Origin: a virus
Lineage: Duplodnaviria > Heunggongvirae > Uroviricota > Caudoviricetes
Virus record (IMG/VR): IMGVR_UViG_2703718868_000012
Location: 1 to 9,571 of that record
DNA: 9,571 bases
Strand: one strand, 5' to 3'
Position 1 is the first letter of the stretch; each line of letters begins with the position of its first letter. Made by a program: the position numbers and the translations under genes. The notes beneath the pieces are model-generated. The model was not told the DNA's origin. It searched no databases and saw only the letters and a list, made by a program, of their open reading frames with translations. Below, in pieces: positions 1 to 9,571 of the stretch.

Positions 1-1890
1 TCATAGTGAATCTGTCCCGCCTGATTTGACCATACCGCGATAATCCAGAGCTGCCACACCTGCATCAATACGGACTTTCCAGGCCACGCCGTCAACGATA
101 AAACCTTCCTGCTGTTCAAGGTAAGGCTCGTCATTGCCATCAAGATAAGCCACCTCGATTGTGTCCGTTCCCTGTGCGGAAAGCATGTACCATTGTTTTT
201 CGCTGATATCATCAAGGCGGGGATCGACGATGATATCAAGTAGCTTGTGATACGGGTTAAAGATCCCGCTGTTTTTATCAGCCCCGAAAGGTGCGGTTGA
301 GTTAATCATCTGCAACGCGCGATCTTCCAGTGCTGCCGGAACTAAAAGGAATTTAGGCGCAATATTCAGCACTTCGCCATTTTTGTCCTTCTGTGTGCGC
401 ATCAGGTGACGTGCTGCACTAAGTCCCGGTGTTGTCAGTCCTGCTTCAATCAGGTTGCTGTGTTTTTTGTCAAACAGCGCTATTCCGTCAGAAAGTTTTA
501 CGTTGCCTGTAAGCACCAGATTAACCAGATTTCCCACCGTTCTTGATGCTGCACGGCCCATAGCCATTGGCACCGTTGATAACTGATCAAGGTCATCATT
601 GATTATCGCCTGGCGGGTAATACTGAAAATATTCCCGTAAGTAGCCAGCGCGATGGGTTCACCGCGATCGCTGGTGGTGATGTATTTATATTCTGCCCCT
701 TCCGGCACTTTGTTTAACGTTGAGAAGCCATTCATACCAACGCGGCGGGCTTCCCGGAAGTTTGAAAGGGAACCTTTTTTCGTCCACTGGCGGAATGTTT
801 CGCCGCTGTGCTCCCAGCCTGCAAGCACTGATTTTTCAGCGCCACCAGCAAGAATATCGGTAAAATCGCTGCTGCTGTGGGTGAATGCCGCGTTTACTAT
901 CTGCGAGCGTGTGCCGTAGCTGCCCGTGCTTATACCACGATGGGTTAATGATGCCTGTGCCATATCGAAAAGGCTCATCATGGCGTAAGGATTACCGCGT
1001 TCGGCCCGTTCGTGACCAAGACGCGCATTAAGCCCCTGGCGCATTGCATCGCCGGTTATGTTGCCGTTATCCGTGTACGCGTAGTAAAGATTTGCGGGGG
1101 TGGTTTTGTTTGTTGGCGTTGATTCTTTACCCATAGCGAGTAAAAGGCGTTCGCGTGCATTCTCAACGCTACATTCTGAATCAGCAAGACAACTTATAGC
1201 CAGGTCGTTATATCTTCCGTTGAACGTGCCAAACAATTCACGTATCCCGTTGAGTCGTTCCTGTTCTCCGCTGCCAGTTTTCTGGCTGATCATGTTTTTA
1301 ATATTTTCCGGCATATTTGAAAAATCTCCGATTCGTTTTGATTCAATTCGGGCCATTGCTGTAATCGCGGGTATAACCTCATCTGCGAAACCGTTAGCCT
1401 TACACTCATTGCCATCCATCCAGGTTTCCGCCTCCATCATGGCGGTGATTTCCTGTTTACTCCTGCCCGTTCTTCCGGCGTAGGTTTCTGCCATCGTGTC
1501 GCCCAGCTTGTCCATCAGGTCAGCAAAGCGGCGAACGTCGCCCGACACTCCGGCAGTAACACCACGGGGGGCATGTATCATCATCATCGCGTTTTCAGGC
1601 ATAACGATGTGATCGCCACACATGGCAATAAACGAGGCCATAGAAGCCGCCATGCCCTCAATGTGTACAATTTTCTTTGCCGGATGATTTTTCAGGGCGT
1701 TATAGATAGCCAGCCCTTCAAAGATGTCGCCACCAGGTGAATGGATGCGAAGATGGATTTCAGACGCATTACCACACGCGTTGATCTCGTCAGTAAGTGC
1801 CGATGCTTTTACACCGTACCCGCCGATCTCGTCATAAATGCGCACATAGACAACATCTGCCATAGCCTTAATGGAAAACCATGTTTTCAT
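1..1890 (-). CDS. Prohead serine protease (ClpP-like) - scaffold-like linker - HK97-fold major capsid protein, single 629-aa polypeptide
   Basis: ATG at 1890, TGA at 3-1. N-terminal ~170 aa carry ClpP-like motifs GMAASMASF (compare E. coli ClpP GQAASMGAF around the catalytic Ser) and MMMIHAPRG (ClpP MIHQP, catalytic His). Middle ~100 aa are charged and helical. C-terminal ~330 aa look like an HK97-family major capsid protein (...FNPYHKLLDIIVDPRLDD...). Confidence 0.85.
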   Translation of the reverse strand: MKTWFSIKAMADVVYVRIYDEIGGYGVKASALTDEINACGNASEIHLRIHSPGGDIFEGLAIYNALKNHPAKKIVHIEGMAASMASFIAMCGDHIVMPENAMMMIHAPRGVTAGVSGDVRRFADLMDKLGDTMAETYAGRTGRSKQEITAMMEAETWMDGNECKANGFADEVIPAITAMARIESKRIGDFSNMPENIKNMISQKTGSGEQERLNGIRELFGTFNGRYNDLAISCLADSECSVENARERLLLAMGKESTPTNKTTPANLYYAYTDNGNITGDAMRQGLNARLGHERAERGNPYAMMSLFDMAQASLTHRGISTGSYGTRSQIVNAAFTHSSSDFTDILAGGAEKSVLAGWEHSGETFRQWTKKGSLSNFREARRVGMNGFSTLNKVPEGAEYKYITTSDRGEPIALATYGNIFSITRQAIINDDLDQLSTVPMAMGRAASRTVGNLVNLVLTGNVKLSDGIALFDKKHSNLIEAGLTTPGLSAARHLMRTQKDKNGEVLNIAPKFLLVPAALEDRALQMINSTAPFGADKNSGIFNPYHKLLDIIVDPRLDDISEKQWYMLSAQGTDTIEVAYLDGNDEPYLEQQEGFIVDGVAWKVRIDAGVAALDYRGMVKSGGTDSL

Positions 1891-2081: not shown

Positions 2082-2157
2082 AAATCCACCTCCTTTTTGG
2101 TTAACGGGCATCATTATTGATCGATAAAAGTAATAGATAAATCATTTTCTACCTGAA

Positions 2158-2191
2158 AATCAGATTATGATTTTTCTGATTATTCTCACAA
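2158..2191 (-). promoter_or_regulatory. Candidate sigma70-type promoter for the capsid operon with overlapping 7-bp inverted repeat
   Basis: On the minus strand: -35 TTGTGA (plus 2186-2191), 16-nt spacer, -10 CATAAT (plus 2164-2169), about 80 nt upstream of the ATG at 2081. Inverted repeat AATCAGA (2158-2164) / TCTGATT (2175-2181) overlaps the -10. Confidence 0.3.
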
Positions 2192-2276
2192 AGGCAAAGT
2201 TATTGACGCATTTTTGCCATTGAAGCAGTATTAAGACTCGTCATCCTGGCGATAAAAACTCCTTTGTCGTGTAAAA

Positions 2277-2311
2277 GCGCCTCCGGTAACAGCAATCGGG
2301 GGCGCTTTTTT
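2277..2311 (+). terminator. Rho-independent terminator-like hairpin plus T-tract
   Basis: Stem GCGCCTCC (2277-2284) pairs with GGGGGCGC (2298-2305) with one G-U pair; 13-nt loop; followed by TTTTTT (2306-2311). The reverse complement has a weaker U-tract, so it may act partly in both directions. Confidence 0.45.
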
Positions 2312-2508
2312 GCGCCTGTTTTTTGTAAATGTTTTCGGGAACGTTCCGGTGATGAACAAAAAACAACCTGATTCGATACTAAAAATTTTTATTTCTCAAC
2401 ATATCAATAGCTTATAGTGGTGGTGATGGTGCCATAAAAATCAAAAAATGCGCCTTTTTCCGCGCCCCTCCGCCCCGTGTTCAGGCCCACCCCGCCAGGA
2501 GGACCCGT

Positions 2509-2532
2509 AAAAAAGCCGGATTGCTCCGGCTT
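2509..2532 (-). terminator. Rho-independent terminator downstream of the ssb-like gene
   Basis: Hairpin AAGCCGG (2513-2519) / CCGGCTT (2526-2532), loop ATTGCT. On the minus strand it is followed by a U-tract (plus-strand A6 at 2509-2514). Lies ~15 nt past the stop at 2547-2549. Confidence 0.6.
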
Positions 2533-2546
2533 CTGTCACTCGTCGC

Positions 2547-2969
2547 TTAAAACGGTATGTTATCCCCGTACGGATCATCATTCCCCGCCTGTTGTTTTGC
2601 CCTGTTCAGCGCGTCAGTAGCCTGGCCCTGTTGACCTTTTTTGCCGCCCAGTCGCGCCGTTCGCGCACTGATTACACTGTCTGCGATAACCTGCCAGCCC
2701 TGCCGCGTTTCTCCGTTCTGCCCAGTCCACTGGCTGATCTGCATGTTACCCGCCACGCTCAGGAGTTCACCCTTGCGGTGCCTTTCCAGTGCTTCGGCCT
2801 GTCTGCCAAATGCCAGGACGGATAACCACATCGTCGCCGTTCCGTCATCTGCCTGGCTGCACGGAAGGGGGACCGCCATACGCGCCAGCGTCATCGGTGT
2901 GCCCTTGCTGGTCTGTTTTACCTGCGGGTCGTCCACCAGCCGCCCGTAAGCGGCTATCTGTGCTGTCAT
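2547..2969 (-). CDS. ssb: Single-stranded DNA-binding protein (SSB-like, OB fold with acidic ...IPF tail)
   Basis: 140 aa. N-terminal region aligns by eye with E. coli SSB (GRL..DP.V...W..V..FG..AE....KG....V.G......W....G..R). Gly/Gln-rich linker. C-terminus DDPYGDNIPF resembles the conserved SSB tail DDDIPF. ATG at 2969 overlaps the upstream stop as ATGA. Confidence 0.8.
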   Translation of the reverse strand: MTAQIAAYGRLVDDPQVKQTSKGTPMTLARMAVPLPCSQADDGTATMWLSVLAFGRQAEALERHRKGELLSVAGNMQISQWTGQNGETRQGWQVIADSVISARTARLGGKKGQQGQATDALNRAKQQAGNDDPYGDNIPF

Positions 2970-3223: not shown

Positions 3224-3271
3224 TTTTATTTTTACCCCCTCGTTTAAAAAGTTTTGAGTTGTGCCTCCCCT

Positions 3272-3498
3272 TGTCTACCTTATCTACCTTACTGGCCACC
3301 ATGCCAGTAATGGCGCGGCTTTCAGTGGGGTAGAGTGCTTTTATCCACTATCTACCCCGTATCTACCTCCCTGTCTGATTCAGGTAAAATCAGGTAGAGA
3401 GGGTAGATAGTAGGTAGACAGTAAAAAAAGGCTGTCTACCCAAGTTAATGTACTGAATTAAATGTATTTTTCTTTACTCAGGTAGACAGGGTAGACAG
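3272..3498. repeat. Iteron array, putative replication origin
   Basis: Eleven copies of the core GGTAGA / TCTACC. Plus-orientation TCTACC at 3274, 3283, 3351, 3362, 3435; reverse GGTAGA at 3329, 3393, 3402, 3413, 3481, 3490. Includes tandem GGTAGACAG x2 (3481-3498) and a 9-bp inverted pair GGTAGACAG (3413-3421) / CTGTCTACC (3432-3440). AT-rich stretch 3441-3480. Sits immediately 3' of the primase gene. Confidence 0.7.
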
Positions 3499-3511
3499 CC
3501 ATTGCAACAAA

Positions 3512-5266
3512 TTATAAAAACGCGTCGCAATCGTCTGTTGTTATTGCGTTAGTCTGCGTTACTCCTTTAACTTTCCGCGTAATATATTCATGTCCGTAAA
3601 CTTTCGCGGCTGGCTTCATAGCCTTGCCAAAGTCATTTACGTTTAGCGGTTTGCTCCTGCCTGCGTACGCCATAAACGCCAGATAGACGCGGTAAAGGCT
3701 GTTTCTGGTCGTGTACTTCACTGAATCGCCACCGCCGCCCATCATCAGGCCGCGTGCTTCCTCCAGAAAATTCAGGAACTGGCAAAACTCAATAACCGGA
3801 TCCGTCTGTTGCTTTATTGCCAGTGCTTCATCACCGTCACGCTGTTCCAGTAGTAAAGCCCGTGCCTTCTCAGGGTCGGTAAAGTTCGCCAGCAATCGGC
3901 GGATAATGACAGGGATTTCAGCCGCAATCTTTTCCGGTAGCTCCCTGTCTTTTTCGGCCTCACTGACGATATTGTCGAAACGGAAAATCACGCGACGACG
4001 TGCCACACCTCCGGCCCGTTCGGTGAATATCATCGGGTTATTGTTGGTCGCCAGCACCACCGCCCTGATTACAGCCGTGAAACGCTTTTCGTATTTCGGG
4101 TTAATTTCCACGGGGTCACCGCCCGTGATTTTCTTGATGCCCGTTCCTTCGCCTGTATATTTCGGCTGGTCAGCCAGGACGATAAGGCGACTCCCGACAA
4201 CCTGCGCACGTCCACCAGCATCATCAAGCGATGTCATTTCAGCGCTTACCGTGTTCTGTTTCCCTGCCAGAAGGCTGGCTATGTGTGTGAATGTACTTTT
4301 ACCGCTCCCGCCGTCTCCGGTGGCCTCAATAAACATCTGCCAGTCGTACCGGTTCGCCATAATCATGTACAGCGCGGCACATATCCGCATCATCTTGCGC
4401 GGGTCTTTTCCGGCTGCGTGCTCAAGCCATTTATGAAAGTTTGGCGCGTTATCGCGGATGTTCTCCCCTGGTGCTGGTGGCGTGTACTCAATACTGTTGT
4501 GCGTGGTGATCCAGTTCTCCGGCGTGTGCGGGGAAAATTCCCCCGTTTTCAGGTCAAGCGCACCATTGGCAAACGGCAGCAAATCGCCGGACGGCTCGCC
4601 CATTGGTTCGGCAATAACTTTTAACGCTTCCACGGCGTTATTGATTACGCGCTTGCTGAAAGTGGCCCTGTGCTCTGAATAGATCGCCACCATTTCGCGG
4701 CTAAGTTCCATTGTGCTGACCGGACACCATACCCCGCCGCGCCATACGTGAACGATTTCACTTTCAGGATGCACGCAAACGCCATCAAATCGTCCGGCAA
4801 GAAGTTGAGCGCGCTCACTGTCCGCCATCTGCGAAAGTTGCGCCTTTTGCTTTACAGGAAGCTCAATAACCAGCCCATCAGAAAGATTCTGGCGCTCACT
4901 GGCCAGATATTCGCGCCAGTTCTCCACCTTCTGACCGTGCATACCATCAGGGTAAAAATTTGCATCCTGTACGCCTGCCGCCGCCAGCTTCTGACCAATC
5001 GCCTTTATCATTACTGGCGCAAGATATCCGGCCCTGAATATGCGCACGGATTTTCTGCCTTCCGGCACAATTTGCAGCTTATCCAGTTCTGATAACTGCT
5101 GCTCCCCAAGCCACACAGGAGGCTCATTATCTCCGGCCATACGCGCGTCATGTTCCTGCCATTGTTTCGCGTGTGACCAGGCATCACTACCCGCAAAAAT
5201 AATGACTTCTGTTTCTTTGTGTTTTATGCCGCGTGGCTGCTGTTTTACGTTCGGTGCCAGTTTCAT
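3512..5266 (-). CDS. Phage/plasmid primase, P4 family (primase-helicase, D5-like NTPase)
   Basis: 584 aa. Walker A GDGGSGKST seen directly; a Walker B-like hydrophobic stretch ...LIVLAD... follows. Overall resemblance to the P4-alpha C-terminal / D5-type replicative primase-helicases of satellites. ATG at 5266 overlaps the upstream stop as ATGA; SD AGGGG ~8 nt upstream. Confidence 0.85.
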   Translation of the reverse strand: MKLAPNVKQQPRGIKHKETEVIIFAGSDAWSHAKQWQEHDARMAGDNEPPVWLGEQQLSELDKLQIVPEGRKSVRIFRAGYLAPVMIKAIGQKLAAAGVQDANFYPDGMHGQKVENWREYLASERQNLSDGLVIELPVKQKAQLSQMADSERAQLLAGRFDGVCVHPESEIVHVWRGGVWCPVSTMELSREMVAIYSEHRATFSKRVINNAVEALKVIAEPMGEPSGDLLPFANGALDLKTGEFSPHTPENWITTHNSIEYTPPAPGENIRDNAPNFHKWLEHAAGKDPRKMMRICAALYMIMANRYDWQMFIEATGDGGSGKSTFTHIASLLAGKQNTVSAEMTSLDDAGGRAQVVGSRLIVLADQPKYTGEGTGIKKITGGDPVEINPKYEKRFTAVIRAVVLATNNNPMIFTERAGGVARRRVIFRFDNIVSEAEKDRELPEKIAAEIPVIIRRLLANFTDPEKARALLLEQRDGDEALAIKQQTDPVIEFCQFLNFLEEARGLMMGGGGDSVKYTTRNSLYRVYLAFMAYAGRSKPLNVNDFGKAMKPAAKVYGHEYITRKVKGVTQTNAITTDDCDAFL

Positions 5267-6024: not shown

Positions 6025-6238
6025 AACCCCCCCCATTTTCACAATCAGCAACAAGAATATTTTTAGCGTCATTCAGTGACCGCGTTGCGGTGTATCGGAT
6101 ACATTCCAGGGCGAATAGTGTGTATTCTTCCCGTCCTTCCTTTTGTGCAAGCTCTGCTGTGCATTCAATATCAATAAGCGCGTGCATCAGCGTAGTGAGT
6201 GCGGCAGCTGCTGCGTCCGGTGTGGTTTTATTGTGCAT
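6017..6238 (-). CDS. Hypothetical 73-aa protein
   Basis: ATG at 6238 preceded by AGGGGGA ~6 nt upstream. The track start at 6277 is a TTG without RBS support. The last codons (...ENGGGYA) run through the G8 tract. Confidence 0.45.
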   Translation of the reverse strand: MHNKTTPDAAAAALTTLMHALIDIECTAELAQKEGREEYTLFALECIRYTATRSLNDAKNILVADCENGGGYA

Positions 6239-6428
6239 AGGTTTCCCCCTGGCGAATACGGGCGGCGAATACCGCAATACAACCGGACGGGCAACGGCTA
6301 CGCGCTTCGCGTTCCGTCCAGGCGGTTACGTGGATGATTTGAGATTCTCCGGCACTCAGTGCCAGAAAACGCCACACAAAGGCCGTTTGTGTGTGTGCTA
6401 GTCGTGGGGTATGATTTACGGCAACCAT
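6228..6428 (-). CDS. Hypothetical 66-aa protein, first ORF of the small-ORF/primase operon
   Basis: ATG at 6428 with SD GAGAGGT ~6 nt upstream; ends 11 nt inside the next ORF in another frame. No motif recognised. Confidence 0.4.
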   Translation of the reverse strand: MVAVNHTPRLAHTQTAFVWRFLALSAGESQIIHVTAWTEREARSRCPSGCIAVFAARIRQGETYAQ

Positions 6429-6502
6429 AAATTTACCTCTCTATAGTGTTTGTGGTTAGACGCCCTGCATGTGTTCCAGCACTGTGGGGCGTTGTTTTTT
6501 GG

Positions 6503-6575
6503 TGCAAGTCACCTTGAAATCTAGGTTACTTTTAGGTGACTTGCACTTCAAGTCTTTTTTTATTTTTTTTTCTCC
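6503..6575. promoter_or_regulatory. Divergent control region: 12-bp perfect inverted repeat (operator-like) followed by a hairpin and long T-tract
   Basis: TGCAAGTCACCT (6503-6514) and AGGTGACTTGCA (6534-6545) are exact reverse complements, 19-bp spacer. Second hairpin GACTTG (6538-6543) / CAAGTC (6549-6554) is followed by T7-A-T9 (6555-6571). Lies between the divergent starts at 6428 (minus) and 6613 (plus). Confidence 0.45.
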
Positions 6576-6612
6576 GTATACTGAACACCACCTAACAGTA
6601 AGGAGAACAGAG

Positions 6613-6792
6613 ATGCCAACAGGTACAACCAACAACAAGTCACAACAAAAAACTGCTAGAGTACCTCTAGACGTTTTAAGCGAAATGAATTTGGTAAAAG
6701 AAGAAAACGAAACAGACGCACAATTTATCGTTACTGCCATGCGCGGCGAAATCAAACGCCGCCAGCGTCGCAAGGCCAAAGAATCAGAATAA
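6613..6792 (+). CDS. Small basic protein, possible ribbon-helix-helix DNA-binding regulator (59 aa)
   Basis: Canonical SD AAGGAG (6600-6605) 7 nt before the ATG at 6613. Sequence ...ARVPLDVLSEMNLVKEENETDAQFIVTAMRGEIKRRQRRK fits a beta-strand / helix / loop / helix RHH pattern with a basic tail. The first ~120 nt are markedly AT-rich. The longer track ORF from 6469 would translate the palindrome and T-tract. Confidence 0.55.
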   Translation: MPTGTTNNKSQQKTARVPLDVLSEMNLVKEENETDAQFIVTAMRGEIKRRQRRKAKESE

Positions 6793-6849
6793 TCACTATC
6801 AGCGCCGTGGTGTGAGGTACTACGGCGCATTGCTTTACAGGGCAGTATC

Positions 6850-7077
6850 ATGACCAACAACACACTATCACCAATACAAGACACGCAAACGCAAGATGAT
6901 GAAATCATCCGGCAAAGGCAGTCAGAAGCCTGCGCCAGACTTGAGGAAGAACTAACCAGAACAAAAATACCACCACCAGCGCCGCGCTTAGTGCCACCAG
7001 AAAAATTTGCCCTTGAAGATTTTGTCGATAAATACCCACGGCGGCTTAAATCCGGCAAAAACCGACCGCCAGGATGA
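6850..7077 (+). CDS. Hypothetical 75-aa protein (acidic, helical N-half, Pro-rich C-half)
   Basis: ATG at 6850 with a weak GGG SD ~7 nt upstream; reading frame looks protein-like. Preceded by hairpin GCGCCGT (6802-6808) / ACGGCGC (6822-6828). Confidence 0.4.
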   Translation: MTNNTLSPIQDTQTQDDEIIRQRQSEACARLEEELTRTKIPPPAPRLVPPEKFALEDFVDKYPRRLKSGKNRPPG

Positions 7078-7196
7078 GTGCACAAGACGGAACCATGAAA
7101 CGGATTATTCCGTTTCCGGGGCGTTTGTGTGTGTATAAAGAGTAAGCTATGCTCTTTTATAGCCATAATCGTTACCTCAATTAATGGTTTGGTTAG

Positions 7197-7238
7197 AAGC
7201 CCGTTGGTGTTCATAGCGCCAGCGGGCTTTGCTTTTTG
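7197..7238 (+). terminator. Rho-independent terminator ending the 6613-7077 transcription unit
   Basis: 11-bp stem AAGCCCGTTGG (7197-7207) / CCAGCGGGCTT (7219-7229) with one G-U pair, 11-nt loop, then a U-rich tail TTGCTTTTTGTG. Confidence 0.5.
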
Positions 7239-7248
7239 TGTTGATTGT

Positions 7249-7282
7249 ATGTAATGTGTCACCACGCATAAATACATTACAT
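7249..7282 (+). promoter_or_regulatory. 9-bp perfect inverted repeat, candidate operator just upstream of the Arc-like gene
   Basis: ATGTAATGT (7249-7257) and ACATTACAT (7274-7282) are exact reverse complements, 16-bp spacer. Preceded by a TTGATT -35-like hexamer (7241-7246); ends 15 nt before the GTG start. Confidence 0.35.
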
Positions 7283-7296
7283 GAGGTGTAATTAAC

Positions 7297-7476
7297 GTGT
7301 CAACACACAAAAACGAAAGGCGTGGTAATCCTCCGTTCCAGTTCCGTTTAGATCCTGACTTACGGGAAAAGATGGAAAAGGCACAACAACATGACGGCGA
7401 TGATTCTCTTGCTGCCTGGATAAAGCGAATAATCCGCAAAGAATTACAGCAACGCGGCATAGAACCCAAAGGGTAA
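7297..7476 (+). CDS. Arc-family ribbon-helix-helix DNA-binding protein (59 aa)
   Basis: GTG at 7297 with SD GAGGTG 8 nt upstream. PPFQFRLDPDLREKMEKAQQHDGDDSLAAWIKRIIRKEL matches the Arc repressor pattern (P22 Arc PQFNLRWPREVLDLVRKVAEENGRSVNSEIYQRV). Absent from the supplied track (GTG start, under 60 aa). Confidence 0.6.
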   Translation: MSTHKNERRGNPPFQFRLDPDLREKMEKAQQHDGDDSLAAWIKRIIRKELQQRGIEPKG

Positions 7477-7571
7477 TTACATTGCCCACCAGCCTGATAG
7501 CGGCTATCATTCCCGTGCTTATGTTTGGGATCACATACACATAAGGCGCAGCAGGTTAATTGTTCACAAGG

Positions 7572-7597
7572 GCGTTCCGGCAACGGGGCGCTTTTTG
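7572..7597 (+). terminator. Terminator-like hairpin plus T5 downstream of the Arc-like gene
   Basis: Stem GCGTTCC (7572-7578) / GGGGCGC (7585-7591) including G-U pairs, loop GGCAAC, then TTTTT. No U-tract on the opposite strand. Confidence 0.35.
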
Positions 7598-7626
7598 TTA
7601 TGTTCATCGTGTCAAGCCTCACACCA

Positions 7627-7833
7627 TTACGCAGCCGTTCCGCGTGCTTCCTGCTCACGTTCTTTCATCCATGCGATTACGTCTTCCTCATACCATCCGC
7701 GACGGCGTAAACCAACGCGAAAACCCTGCGGAAATTCTCCGGCGTTGATCATGCTTTGAAGCGTGCTGTCTGCCTTGATGTGGATAAGTTTTTTTACTTC
7801 CTGGCGAAAGATGACTTTTTTGATTGCTTCCAT
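7627..7833 (-). CDS. alpA: AlpA-family transcriptional regulator / excisionase-like protein (68 aa)
   Basis: ...IKADSTLQSMINAGEFPQGFRVGLRRRGWYEEDVIAWMKE matches the AlpA pattern (helix-turn-helix, then G.FP...LG.R...W...V..W). Sits near the integrase as in P4-like and PICI elements. Confidence 0.8.
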   Translation of the reverse strand: MEAIKKVIFRQEVKKLIHIKADSTLQSMINAGEFPQGFRVGLRRRGWYEEDVIAWMKEREQEARGTAA

Positions 7834-8329: not shown

Positions 8330-9571
8330 CTAAACGGCTCGGATACCCCTTTTACCACTGGCGAGGGTTACGCCCGTCGCCGCAGCCTCGACAAATTCGC
8401 CCCACCAGCGCATAAGCACCACGCGTTTTTCTATGTAGTTGCTCCGGTTGTATGCCCGTCTCACTTCGTTAGTGTCGACGTGGGCAAGTGCGGCCTCGAT
8501 TACGTCCGGCTCGAATCCTTCCTCGTTCGCTGCTGTACTGAATATGGCGCGTAATCCATGAGACACCAGCACGCCAGCGAACCCCATGCGTCGTAATGCT
8601 GCGTTTGCTGTCTGGCTGTTCATTGGCTGCCGTGGGTCTTTCAGACTCGGGAAAACATAATCGCGGTGGCGGCTGATTGGTTTCATGGCCTCCAGCACCG
8701 CCATAGCCTGACCGGAAAGTGGGATAACGTGATCCCTGCGCATCTTCATGCGTCCGGCGGGTATCGTCCAGCGTTGCGCGTCCAGGTCGATTTCATCCCA
8801 CCGCGTTGATGACGCTTCGGCGGGACGGGTTACGGTCAGTAACTGCCATTCAATCAGTAATCTGGTCTGCCGTTCTGTTGCCGATACTGATAAAGCCTGC
8901 ATAAGCTCCGGCAACTGTTCGGGGCGGATTGTTGGCATATGTTTTTTTACAGGGGAGGGGAACGCCTTACGCACATTCATAGCCGGATTGGCATCAATCA
9001 GCCCACTGTTGGCGGCGTAATCCATTACCTCATTAACGCGCTGTAAAACCCGTTTGAGTGTTTCCAGGTTGCCGCGCTCCTTGATGGGGGTAAGCACCTC
9101 AACGAACCTGCGAGCGGTCAGGGTGTCTATTGGGGTGTTGCCGATGAACGGGAATACATATTTATCCAGCGATCGCCAGATGTCTTTAATCGTGTTGGGG
9201 GCCAGATTCTGGCTGATTTTCACCTGGTACCATGCCGCCGCCACATTTTCGAACGTGTTCCCTTGTCTTCGGGCCTCTGCCTCTCGTTTTTTCTTCTCAT
9301 GGCCCTGCGGGTCAGTTCCGGCACTGATTAACGCTCTGTACTCGCTACGGCGTTTTCTGGCATCAGCCAGGGAAACATCATCAAGCGATCCAAAACTCAG
9401 CAATATTCTTTTTTTGTCCGATGGCCGGTAGTAGGAAAATCGCCAGAGTTTTGATCCGGACGGTTTGACCAGGAGAAAAAGCCCTCCGCCGTCCTGTAGG
9501 GTGTATTCCTTTTCCGCTGGTCTGGCTGCTTTGATCTGCACCGTGGTTAATGGGGGTGTTTTTCTCGCCAT
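8330..9571 (-). CDS. int: Site-specific tyrosine integrase, P4 / CP4-57 type
   Basis: 413 aa. N-terminus MARKTPPLTTVQIKAARPAEKEYTLQDGGGLFLLVKPSGSKLWRFSYY is typical of P4-family integrase arm-binding domains. C-terminal catalytic region carries HGLR... and ...RAYNRSNY (candidate His/Arg/Tyr residues). ATG is at the very last bases of the window, so upstream signals are unseen. Confidence 0.9.
   Translation of the reverse strand: MARKTPPLTTVQIKAARPAEKEYTLQDGGGLFLLVKPSGSKLWRFSYYRPSDKKRILLSFGSLDDVSLADARKRRSEYRALISAGTDPQGHEKKKREAEARRQGNTFENVAAAWYQVKISQNLAPNTIKDIWRSLDKYVFPFIGNTPIDTLTARRFVEVLTPIKERGNLETLKRVLQRVNEVMDYAANSGLIDANPAMNVRKAFPSPVKKHMPTIRPEQLPELMQALSVSATERQTRLLIEWQLLTVTRPAEASSTRWDEIDLDAQRWTIPAGRMKMRRDHVIPLSGQAMAVLEAMKPISRHRDYVFPSLKDPRQPMNSQTANAALRRMGFAGVLVSHGLRAIFSTAANEEGFEPDVIEAALAHVDTNEVRRAYNRSNYIEKRVVLMRWWGEFVEAAATGVTLASGKRGIRAV

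Follow-up and report, generated by a model that had tools for sequence, protein, structure and literature searches.

Positions 2203-2325 of the E. coli phage satellite analysed here (the window, 9,571 nt) may form a self-contained, non-coding plus-strand unit, in which a weak promoter would start transcription at about 2238 and a terminator would shield the adjoining cos site and yield a short RNA. We favour this reading tentatively, at somewhat less than an even chance. What the data show directly is the terminator hairpin, with its conservation, strand bias and genomic context; the context, a cos cassette, is more informative than the sRNA candidate itself.

We suggest that RNA polymerase would initiate at about 2238 from a weak sigma-70-type promoter (TTGACG-17-CAGTAT) on the plus strand, placed back-to-back with the capsid promoter region, and that transcription would be halted at 2306-2311, or else at 2320-2325. 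This would yield an RNA roughly 70-90 nt long, A/U-rich in its 5' half and closed at the 3' end by the terminator hairpin and poly-U, which is the usual build of enterobacterial sRNAs. The terminator would bar this divergent transcription from cosB and cosN and from an antisense run into the ssb-primase genes. The promoter activity, the RNA ends and a regulatory role are what we infer from the sequence. A plus-strand RNA of the predicted length of about 70-90 nt is plausible because the terminator is conserved and plus-strand-biased, and because the -35 hexamer is kept in SCU-111, the only divergent relative.

The satellite island and the distribution of the unit

The window represents a phage satellite of the Gram-negative PICI type, carried by E. 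coli, and its main gene blocks are all on the minus strand, see Table 1. Gram-negative PICIs are ordered int, alpA, pri/ssb and cos, followed by a late zone that usually contains a capsid gene (PMC6092414; bioRxiv 10.1101/2022.07.18.500453). Near-identical islands of about 10 kb are present in E. coli chromosomes at several integration sites, as judged from RefSeq annotation.

Table 1. Features of the window, with strand (+ or -) and remarks
Feature	Position	Strand	Remarks
ClpP-protease/major-capsid fusion	1-1890	-	
phrog_4934 protein, 64 aa, function not assigned	start = ATG at 2081 behind GGAGG	-	
Capsid-operon control region	2113-2191	-	divergent from the unit; 98.5% identical in SCU-111
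Promoter candidate TTTATC-17-AATAAT	2141-2113	-	conserved across genera
Promoter candidate TTGTGA-16-CATAAT	2191-2164	-	promoter scan
Two 16-bp near-palindromes	2135-2150, 2162-2177		
-35-like hexamer TTGACG	2203-2208	+	invariant in 14/14 distinct variants including SCU-111
Weak -10-like hexamer CAGTAT	2226-2231	+	17-nt spacer; 3/6 to TATAAT; CAATAT in many copies
Putative 5' RNA body (inferred start)	2238-2268	+	mostly unstructured, A/U-rich
Weak body hairpin	2251-2256/2263-2268	+	from the fold
Compound terminator hairpin	2269-2316	+	outer helix + A4:U4 + core stem
Outer helix GUGU:GCGC	2269-2272/2312-2315	+	joined to the core through A4:U4 (minimum-free-energy fold)
Core stem	2277-2287/2295-2305	+	11 bp, 7-nt loop 2288-2294, -19.2 kcal/mol
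First U-tract	2306-2311	+	T6 here, T6-T9 in relatives
Second U-tract, after the extended hairpin	2320-2325	+	T6 here, T6-T8 among copies
Lambda-type cos site	2317-2513	-	homology to lambdoid/Stx-type phages
cosB	reaches ~2338	-	CATCACC-type repeats at the R3 position
cosN-like GGGCGGAGGGGC	2475->2464	-	lambda counterpart GGGCGGCGACCT
cosQ-like GGGTCCT	2506->2500	-	alignment with the lambda genome ends
ssb terminator (GCCGGAGCAATCCGGC + T6)	2507-2530	-	abuts cosQ
SSB	2547-2969	-	
D5/primase-helicase	3512-5266	-	
AlpA-like excisionase/regulator	7627-7833	-	
P4-type tyrosine integrase	8330-9571	-	

A search of 5426 complete E. coli genomes found the unit (about 2179-2316) in 144, with at most three copies in each, and further copies are found in about 30 IMG/VR contigs and four metagenome contigs. 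Carriers include E. coli 042, O145:H28 RM12581 and RM13514, O111:H8 and O121:H19. The copies are 93-99% identical, with the sole exception of the SCU-111 clade (SCU-111 = 2012C-4221) at 81%, and a search with the divergent SCU-111 copy returned one identical twin only. Three pattern scans of IMG/VR and one of the metagenomes recovered only near-identical copies, plus an unrelated high-GC terminator (L204). RefSeq annotates no feature at the unit in the carrier genomes, and the O157 reference strains Sakai and EDL933 are not among the matches listed.

Several other elements of the window deserve a brief description. A second orphan hairpin-terminator occupies 6423-6496 of the plus strand (hairpin at 6459-6493, -21.5 kcal/mol, T6) and has a weak SymR-like Rfam match (25.9 bits, E = 0.17, below threshold). 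It faces the start of a repressor-like gene (6228-6428, minus strand), on the opposite strand and immediately upstream; this gene probably corresponds to the Icd-like gene of related islands in RefSeq. The element may be an antisense RNA. A minus-strand ORF of 400 aa (6456-7658), with no Pfam or PHROG match, is probably spurious. It is overlapped by small plus-strand genes at 6614-6792 (YlcI/YnfO-like), 6850-7077 and 7298-7476, each then having a plus-strand terminator (6802-6828, 7196-7230 and 7568-7595). Iteron-like repeats (GGTAGATA/CTACC) occur in 3230-3510, directly 3' of the primase gene, which is the expected position of a PICI replication origin; a mir-3927 match at 3336-3433 is false and was produced by these repeats.

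The terminator hairpin, the promoter-like site and the putative RNA body

The initial annotation had pointed out a hairpin with T6 at 2277-2311, and direct reading of the sequence finds it there, with the core at 2277-2305 and the T-run at 2306-2311. Hairpins were scanned for a stability of -12 kcal/mol or lower with at least five T directly behind, using dinucleotide shuffles as the null; eight such hairpins are found in the window, compared with 0.9 per shuffle. The fold of a 118-nt segment has a z-score of -2.84 and was matched in 0 of 200 shuffles. The hairpin is far beyond chance. A separate terminator scan listed an overlapping hairpin (2300-2317 plus GTTTTTTG); the core hairpin is absent from that list, probably because the maximally extended stem consumes part of the T-run. 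The element combines a stable, GC-rich stem-loop with a U-tract directly 3' of the stem, and according to the fold model 2269-2325 is a compound Rho-independent terminator biased to the plus strand, with termination in vivo as a prediction.

The hairpin has the form A4-stem-T6 and can therefore be read on both strands, although not equally well. 

The core is more stable on the plus strand than on the minus strand (-12.8 kcal/mol). On the plus strand every copy has a U6-U9 tail with another U-run behind it; the minus-strand tail is U4, and U3 in SCU-111. The plus-strand terminator helices contain four G.U pairs, three of which are invariant and one of which becomes C-G in SCU-111; the weak body hairpin contributes a fifth. 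If read on the minus strand the terminator G.U pairs are A.C mismatches, two of them inside the core, and pairs of the opposite kind (A.C on plus, G.U on minus) are absent from the consensus of the terminator helices. A common G -> A variant at 2299 goes the other way, as it breaks the plus-strand pair and creates a G.U on the minus strand instead. On balance, the hairpin looks as if it has been selected as a plus-strand RNA terminator; any minus-strand role would be a weak back-up at most. No plus-strand gene in need of a terminator is found upstream here.

The conservation pattern was studied in 14 distinct variants, including SCU-111, for the -35 hexamer and in nine distinct variants for the pairing. 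In SCU-111 the core stem is identical at 22 of 22 positions (100%), compared with 57% for the loop, 68% for the body (2232-2268) and 62-72% for the flanks; around the -35 hexamer, the upstream flank is 62% and the spacer 71% identical. Across the nine variants 98.2% of the cells are paired; sliding the 3' partners lowers this to 43-56%. The outer helix of SCU-111 contains a compensatory change from G-C to A-U at 2271/2313 and a change from U.G to C-G at 2272/2312. The covariation check proposed earlier for the hairpin did give this one compensatory pair, but the signal is not significant, being equalled in 53 of 500 shuffles, and the diversity is too low. An extension across genera with the protease-MCP fusion recruited 77 loci and was set aside. 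The full-length matches are mostly phages that have a portal gene upstream, and the unit is missing from all five loci that look like satellites (two from Kluyvera and one each from Yersinia, Buttiauxella and Moellerella).

The TTGACG with an imperfect -10 downstream, also described in the initial annotation, can be read directly from the sequence, with a spacer of 17 nt. SCU-111 has a G -> A change in the -10, giving CAATAT, and the block TATTAAG (2229-2235), which overlaps the -10, is invariant in all variants. The match scores 8/12 and is not listed by the promoter scan. The window has eight sites of equal quality, where shuffles give 11.4, and one or more such sites are expected on the plus strand of the intergenic region with a probability of 0.32; the promoter match is no better than chance. 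An inverted repeat, GGCAAA...TTTGCC (2189-2222), is centred on TTGACG and may have arisen by chance or may be an operator that covers the -35; its pair 2193/2218 changes from G-C to G.T (042 type) to A-T (SCU-111).

Of the body, SCU-111 retains a single block, TTTGTCGT (2263-2270), which continues into the outer helix. No plus-strand ORF of at least 20 aa exists from the -10 to the hairpin, which bears out the earlier statement that this interval has no ORF. ORFs that cross the hairpin cannot be coding, because the T-runs they span differ in length among the copies.

The cos cassette and the capsid control region

To the right of the hairpin, the region 2346-2513 matches lambdoid phages, with about 92% identity to 1720a-02 and CP-1639, and also VT1-Sakai, Stx2 phages and mEp460. 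The phage counterparts are flanked by Rz, a lysis gene, and by the gene of the small terminase. In VT1-Sakai the similarity extends to about 2317 (TTTACAAAAAA(A)CAG), upstream of terS. The spacing between cosQ and cosN is 24 nt in the island and 23 nt in lambda, the R-site layout used for cosB was taken from PMC9026076, and 2421-2463 is 100% identical across every island copy compared. The phage homology (2317/2346-2513) stops at the hairpin, where terS follows in the phages, and the hairpin itself has no homology to phage cosQ, cosN or cosB. A phage genome end at about 2315, beside the hairpin, was considered and dropped, as the mEp460 record begins at the ATG of terS and not at a cos end.

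By homology, the cos of the island is a complete helper-type copy that also comprises cosB. EcCICFT073, on the other hand, has a private cosB that is read by Rpp-TerS (PMC6739421). Phage 1720a-02 (L211), our candidate helper, encodes a ClpP-MCP fusion of its own (16709-18688), and the capsid gene of the island is therefore a homologue of that of the candidate helper. The initial annotation had placed the transcript between the ssb terminator and the capsid promoter. The unit does adjoin the capsid promoter module, but most of the interval on the ssb side is cos, which had been missed.

To the left, the near-palindromes of the capsid control region are probably operators of some regulator. The module 2113-2178 is common to Kluyvera and Buttiauxella satellites and to many IMG/VR contigs, and the unit (2179-2316, about 140 nt) fills the gap between this promoter module, which ends at about 2178, and the phage-derived cos, which begins at 2317. 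Its parts are the promoter-like site, the hairpin and, between them, a body of 30 nt. At 1887-2114 of the minus strand the longest ORF has 75 aa; RefSeq and the GGAGG Shine-Dalgarno put the start at 2081, giving 64 aa. The capsid-operon leader is shorter because the phrog_4934 gene starts at this ATG, and it is predicted to run from about 2157 or about 2106 down to 2081 (from predicted promoters, not mapped starts), with no overlap with the unit. The small transcript had been described as lying opposite this leader. However, transcripts from both predicted minus-strand promoters would begin left of 2160; leader and unit therefore diverge, and the unit is not antisense to the leader.

Comparison of related islands reveals how this region has been assembled. 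In class C islands the ssb terminator directly adjoins the capsid promoter module. Class B islands contain a different phage cos, flanked by two copies of the ssb gene-strand terminator (e.g. L194, IMG/VR); this cos is found beside DUF1441-family genes in many E. coli genomes. Two islands, L137 and L151, combine class A capsid genes with the class B cos and are without the unit. Satellites of other genera (Kluyvera, Yersinia and Moellerella) have only gene-strand terminators at the corresponding place. Among the islands examined, the unit accompanies the class A cos only. As classes A, B and C differ exactly between the cos and the promoter module, the cos behaves as an exchangeable cassette within the satellite family.

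Competing explanations and comparison with known systems

The closest competitor to an orphan plus-strand unit is a pure insulator, i.e. a bidirectional terminator between the cos/replication module and the capsid control, in which the RNA is an unselected by-product and TTGACG is no dedicated promoter. Taken alone this is somewhat unlikely, and it is nearly as likely as the orphan unit. It would agree with the A4-stem-T6 form, with the chance-level promoter match, with the poor conservation of the body in SCU-111 (68%), with the target prediction, which gave none above background for the translation-initiation regions (TIRs) of the island and of 1720a-02, and with the fact that a terminator directly upstream of the capsid promoter module is constant across the wider satellite family. 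What it explains less well is that the -35 hexamer and TATTAAG persist in SCU-111 within diverged flanks, and that the plus-strand bias and the double U-run imply real plus-strand transcription needing a stop. Going further than the orphan unit, the RNA could be a regulatory sRNA acting in trans on helper-phage or host mRNAs, which we consider unlikely; it might then tilt the competition between helper and satellite, or alter host physiology. Duplexes were predicted between the 5' body and 11 island TIRs as well as 63 TIRs of phage 1720a-02; the energies are at background, with a best value of -24.9 kcal/mol that is equalled by 31% of shuffled seeds, and the suggestion that the RNA regulates late expression finds no support in them. 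A cis-antisense RNA opposite the capsid-operon leader, controlling late expression, is the least probable of all and would be very surprising. It holds only if a minus-strand transcript crosses 2238-2311, for instance by read-through from ssb or cos, whereas the predicted leader lies elsewhere, and the pairing of 10 out of 12 positions with the RBS of the gene that opens the capsid operon is within background.

The hairpin could also serve the minus strand, blocking read-through from the early/replication operon or from cos promoters into the capsid operon, and such a terminator might be overridden by an antiterminator during induction. Its positional analogues, in classes B and C and in Kluyvera, Yersinia and Moellerella, are gene-strand terminators, the minus strand still folds with a U4 tail, and the 2299 variant keeps its pairing on the minus strand only. 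We nevertheless find this quite unlikely, given that A.C mismatches replace the four plus-strand G.U pairs, that the fold is about 6 kcal/mol weaker, that the U-tract is so short (four, or three in SCU-111) and that a good ssb terminator is already located upstream (2530-2507). Finally, the inverted repeat might act at the DNA level, as a protein-binding palindrome extending cosB (cf. the inverted R2/R1 of lambda) or as a scar of the capture of the cos cassette. It adjoins the end of the phage-derived cos, it is tied to one cos type, with the two class B-cos islands above lacking it, and the inverted cosB repeats of lambda together with a T-run look terminator-like. However, phages with a homologous cos have terS at this place and no hairpin, and the G.T mismatches, all on one strand, together with the variable loop, fit an RNA better than a symmetric DNA site, which makes a DNA-level role highly unlikely. 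R2/R1-like terminase sites in particular were rejected, as the arms differ from the GGTGATG/CATCACC R-like repeats of the island cos.

Should the orphan plus-strand unit really give rise to a trans-acting RNA, the dealings of PICI-type satellites with Stx-type helpers or with the host would include an RNA layer as well, and the pathogenic E. coli concerned would be O157, O145, O111, O121 and EAEC 042. If the element is an insulator only, it would illustrate a modular assembly, in which a cos cassette of phage origin can be exchanged and has terminators on both sides as a shield against the adjacent operons. Either way, the satellite appears to have copied the complete cos of the helper, including cosB, and to carry a homologue of the helper protease-capsid fusion gene.

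The unit is a reasonable candidate for an sRNA of narrow distribution, and to our knowledge no sRNA gene has previously been described beside a satellite packaging site. It is non-coding, its predicted length lies within the 50-300 nt expected of Hfq-type sRNAs, and it has the terminator hairpin with a poly-U of at least six that they share, while a conserved seed with identifiable targets was not found among the island and phage 1720a-02 TIRs. A search of the whole window with Rfam 15 gave no match with E <= 1 in 2203-2311. In a lax search of 211 nt no match exceeded 21.7 bits, where the threshold is 97, and the matches all reflect a generic hairpin shape. None of the known sRNAs Esr41, the Pas sRNAs and AgvB/AsxR matches the unit. 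These are enterobacterial Hfq-type sRNAs encoded on prophages or islands, Esr41 in SpLE1 and the others in lambdoid prophages (PMC5286369; bioRxiv 10.64898/2026.05.13.724894). Like them, the unit has an orphan promoter-like site and a Rho-independent terminator with a long U-tail, would give a non-coding RNA of about 70-90 nt, and is intergenic in a mobile element of pathogenic E. coli; unlike them, it is confined to one satellite lineage.

Among RNAs of phage satellites, the P4 CI and P1 c4 immunity RNAs (Rfam C4, isrK) are the obvious comparison for a candidate small RNA, but these map to the early/immunity region and are released from a longer transcript by processing, whereas the unit adjoins cos; neither C4 nor isrK has an Rfam match within the window. 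The satellite RNAs reported in Gram-negative PICIs are P4 CI/c4-like and are found in the early zone (bioRxiv 10.1101/2022.07.18.500453). With bidirectional intrinsic terminators the unit shares a GC-rich hairpin between an A-run and a T-run that separates two differently regulated modules. It differs from them in its asymmetry, with G.U pairs and U6-9 on the plus strand only, and in its position, which is not between convergent genes and has no plus-strand gene upstream.

The island as a whole is most similar to the EcCICFT073-type PICIs, with which it shares the order int, alpA-like, primase, ssb, cos and capsid (PMC6092414, PMC6739421, PMC9026076, bioRxiv 10.1101/2022.07.18.500453) as well as a lambda-like cosQ/cosN at the same site. 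In the parts of these four sources available to us, no cos-adjacent RNA or terminator is described for such PICIs. The island is, however, distinct from EcCICFT073 in its cosB, which is of the helper type (homologous to 1720a-02, CP-1639 and VT1-Sakai) and not of the private, Rpp type, and distinct from the EcCICFT073-type PICIs in its capsid gene, which is a fusion of a ClpP protease and the MCP.
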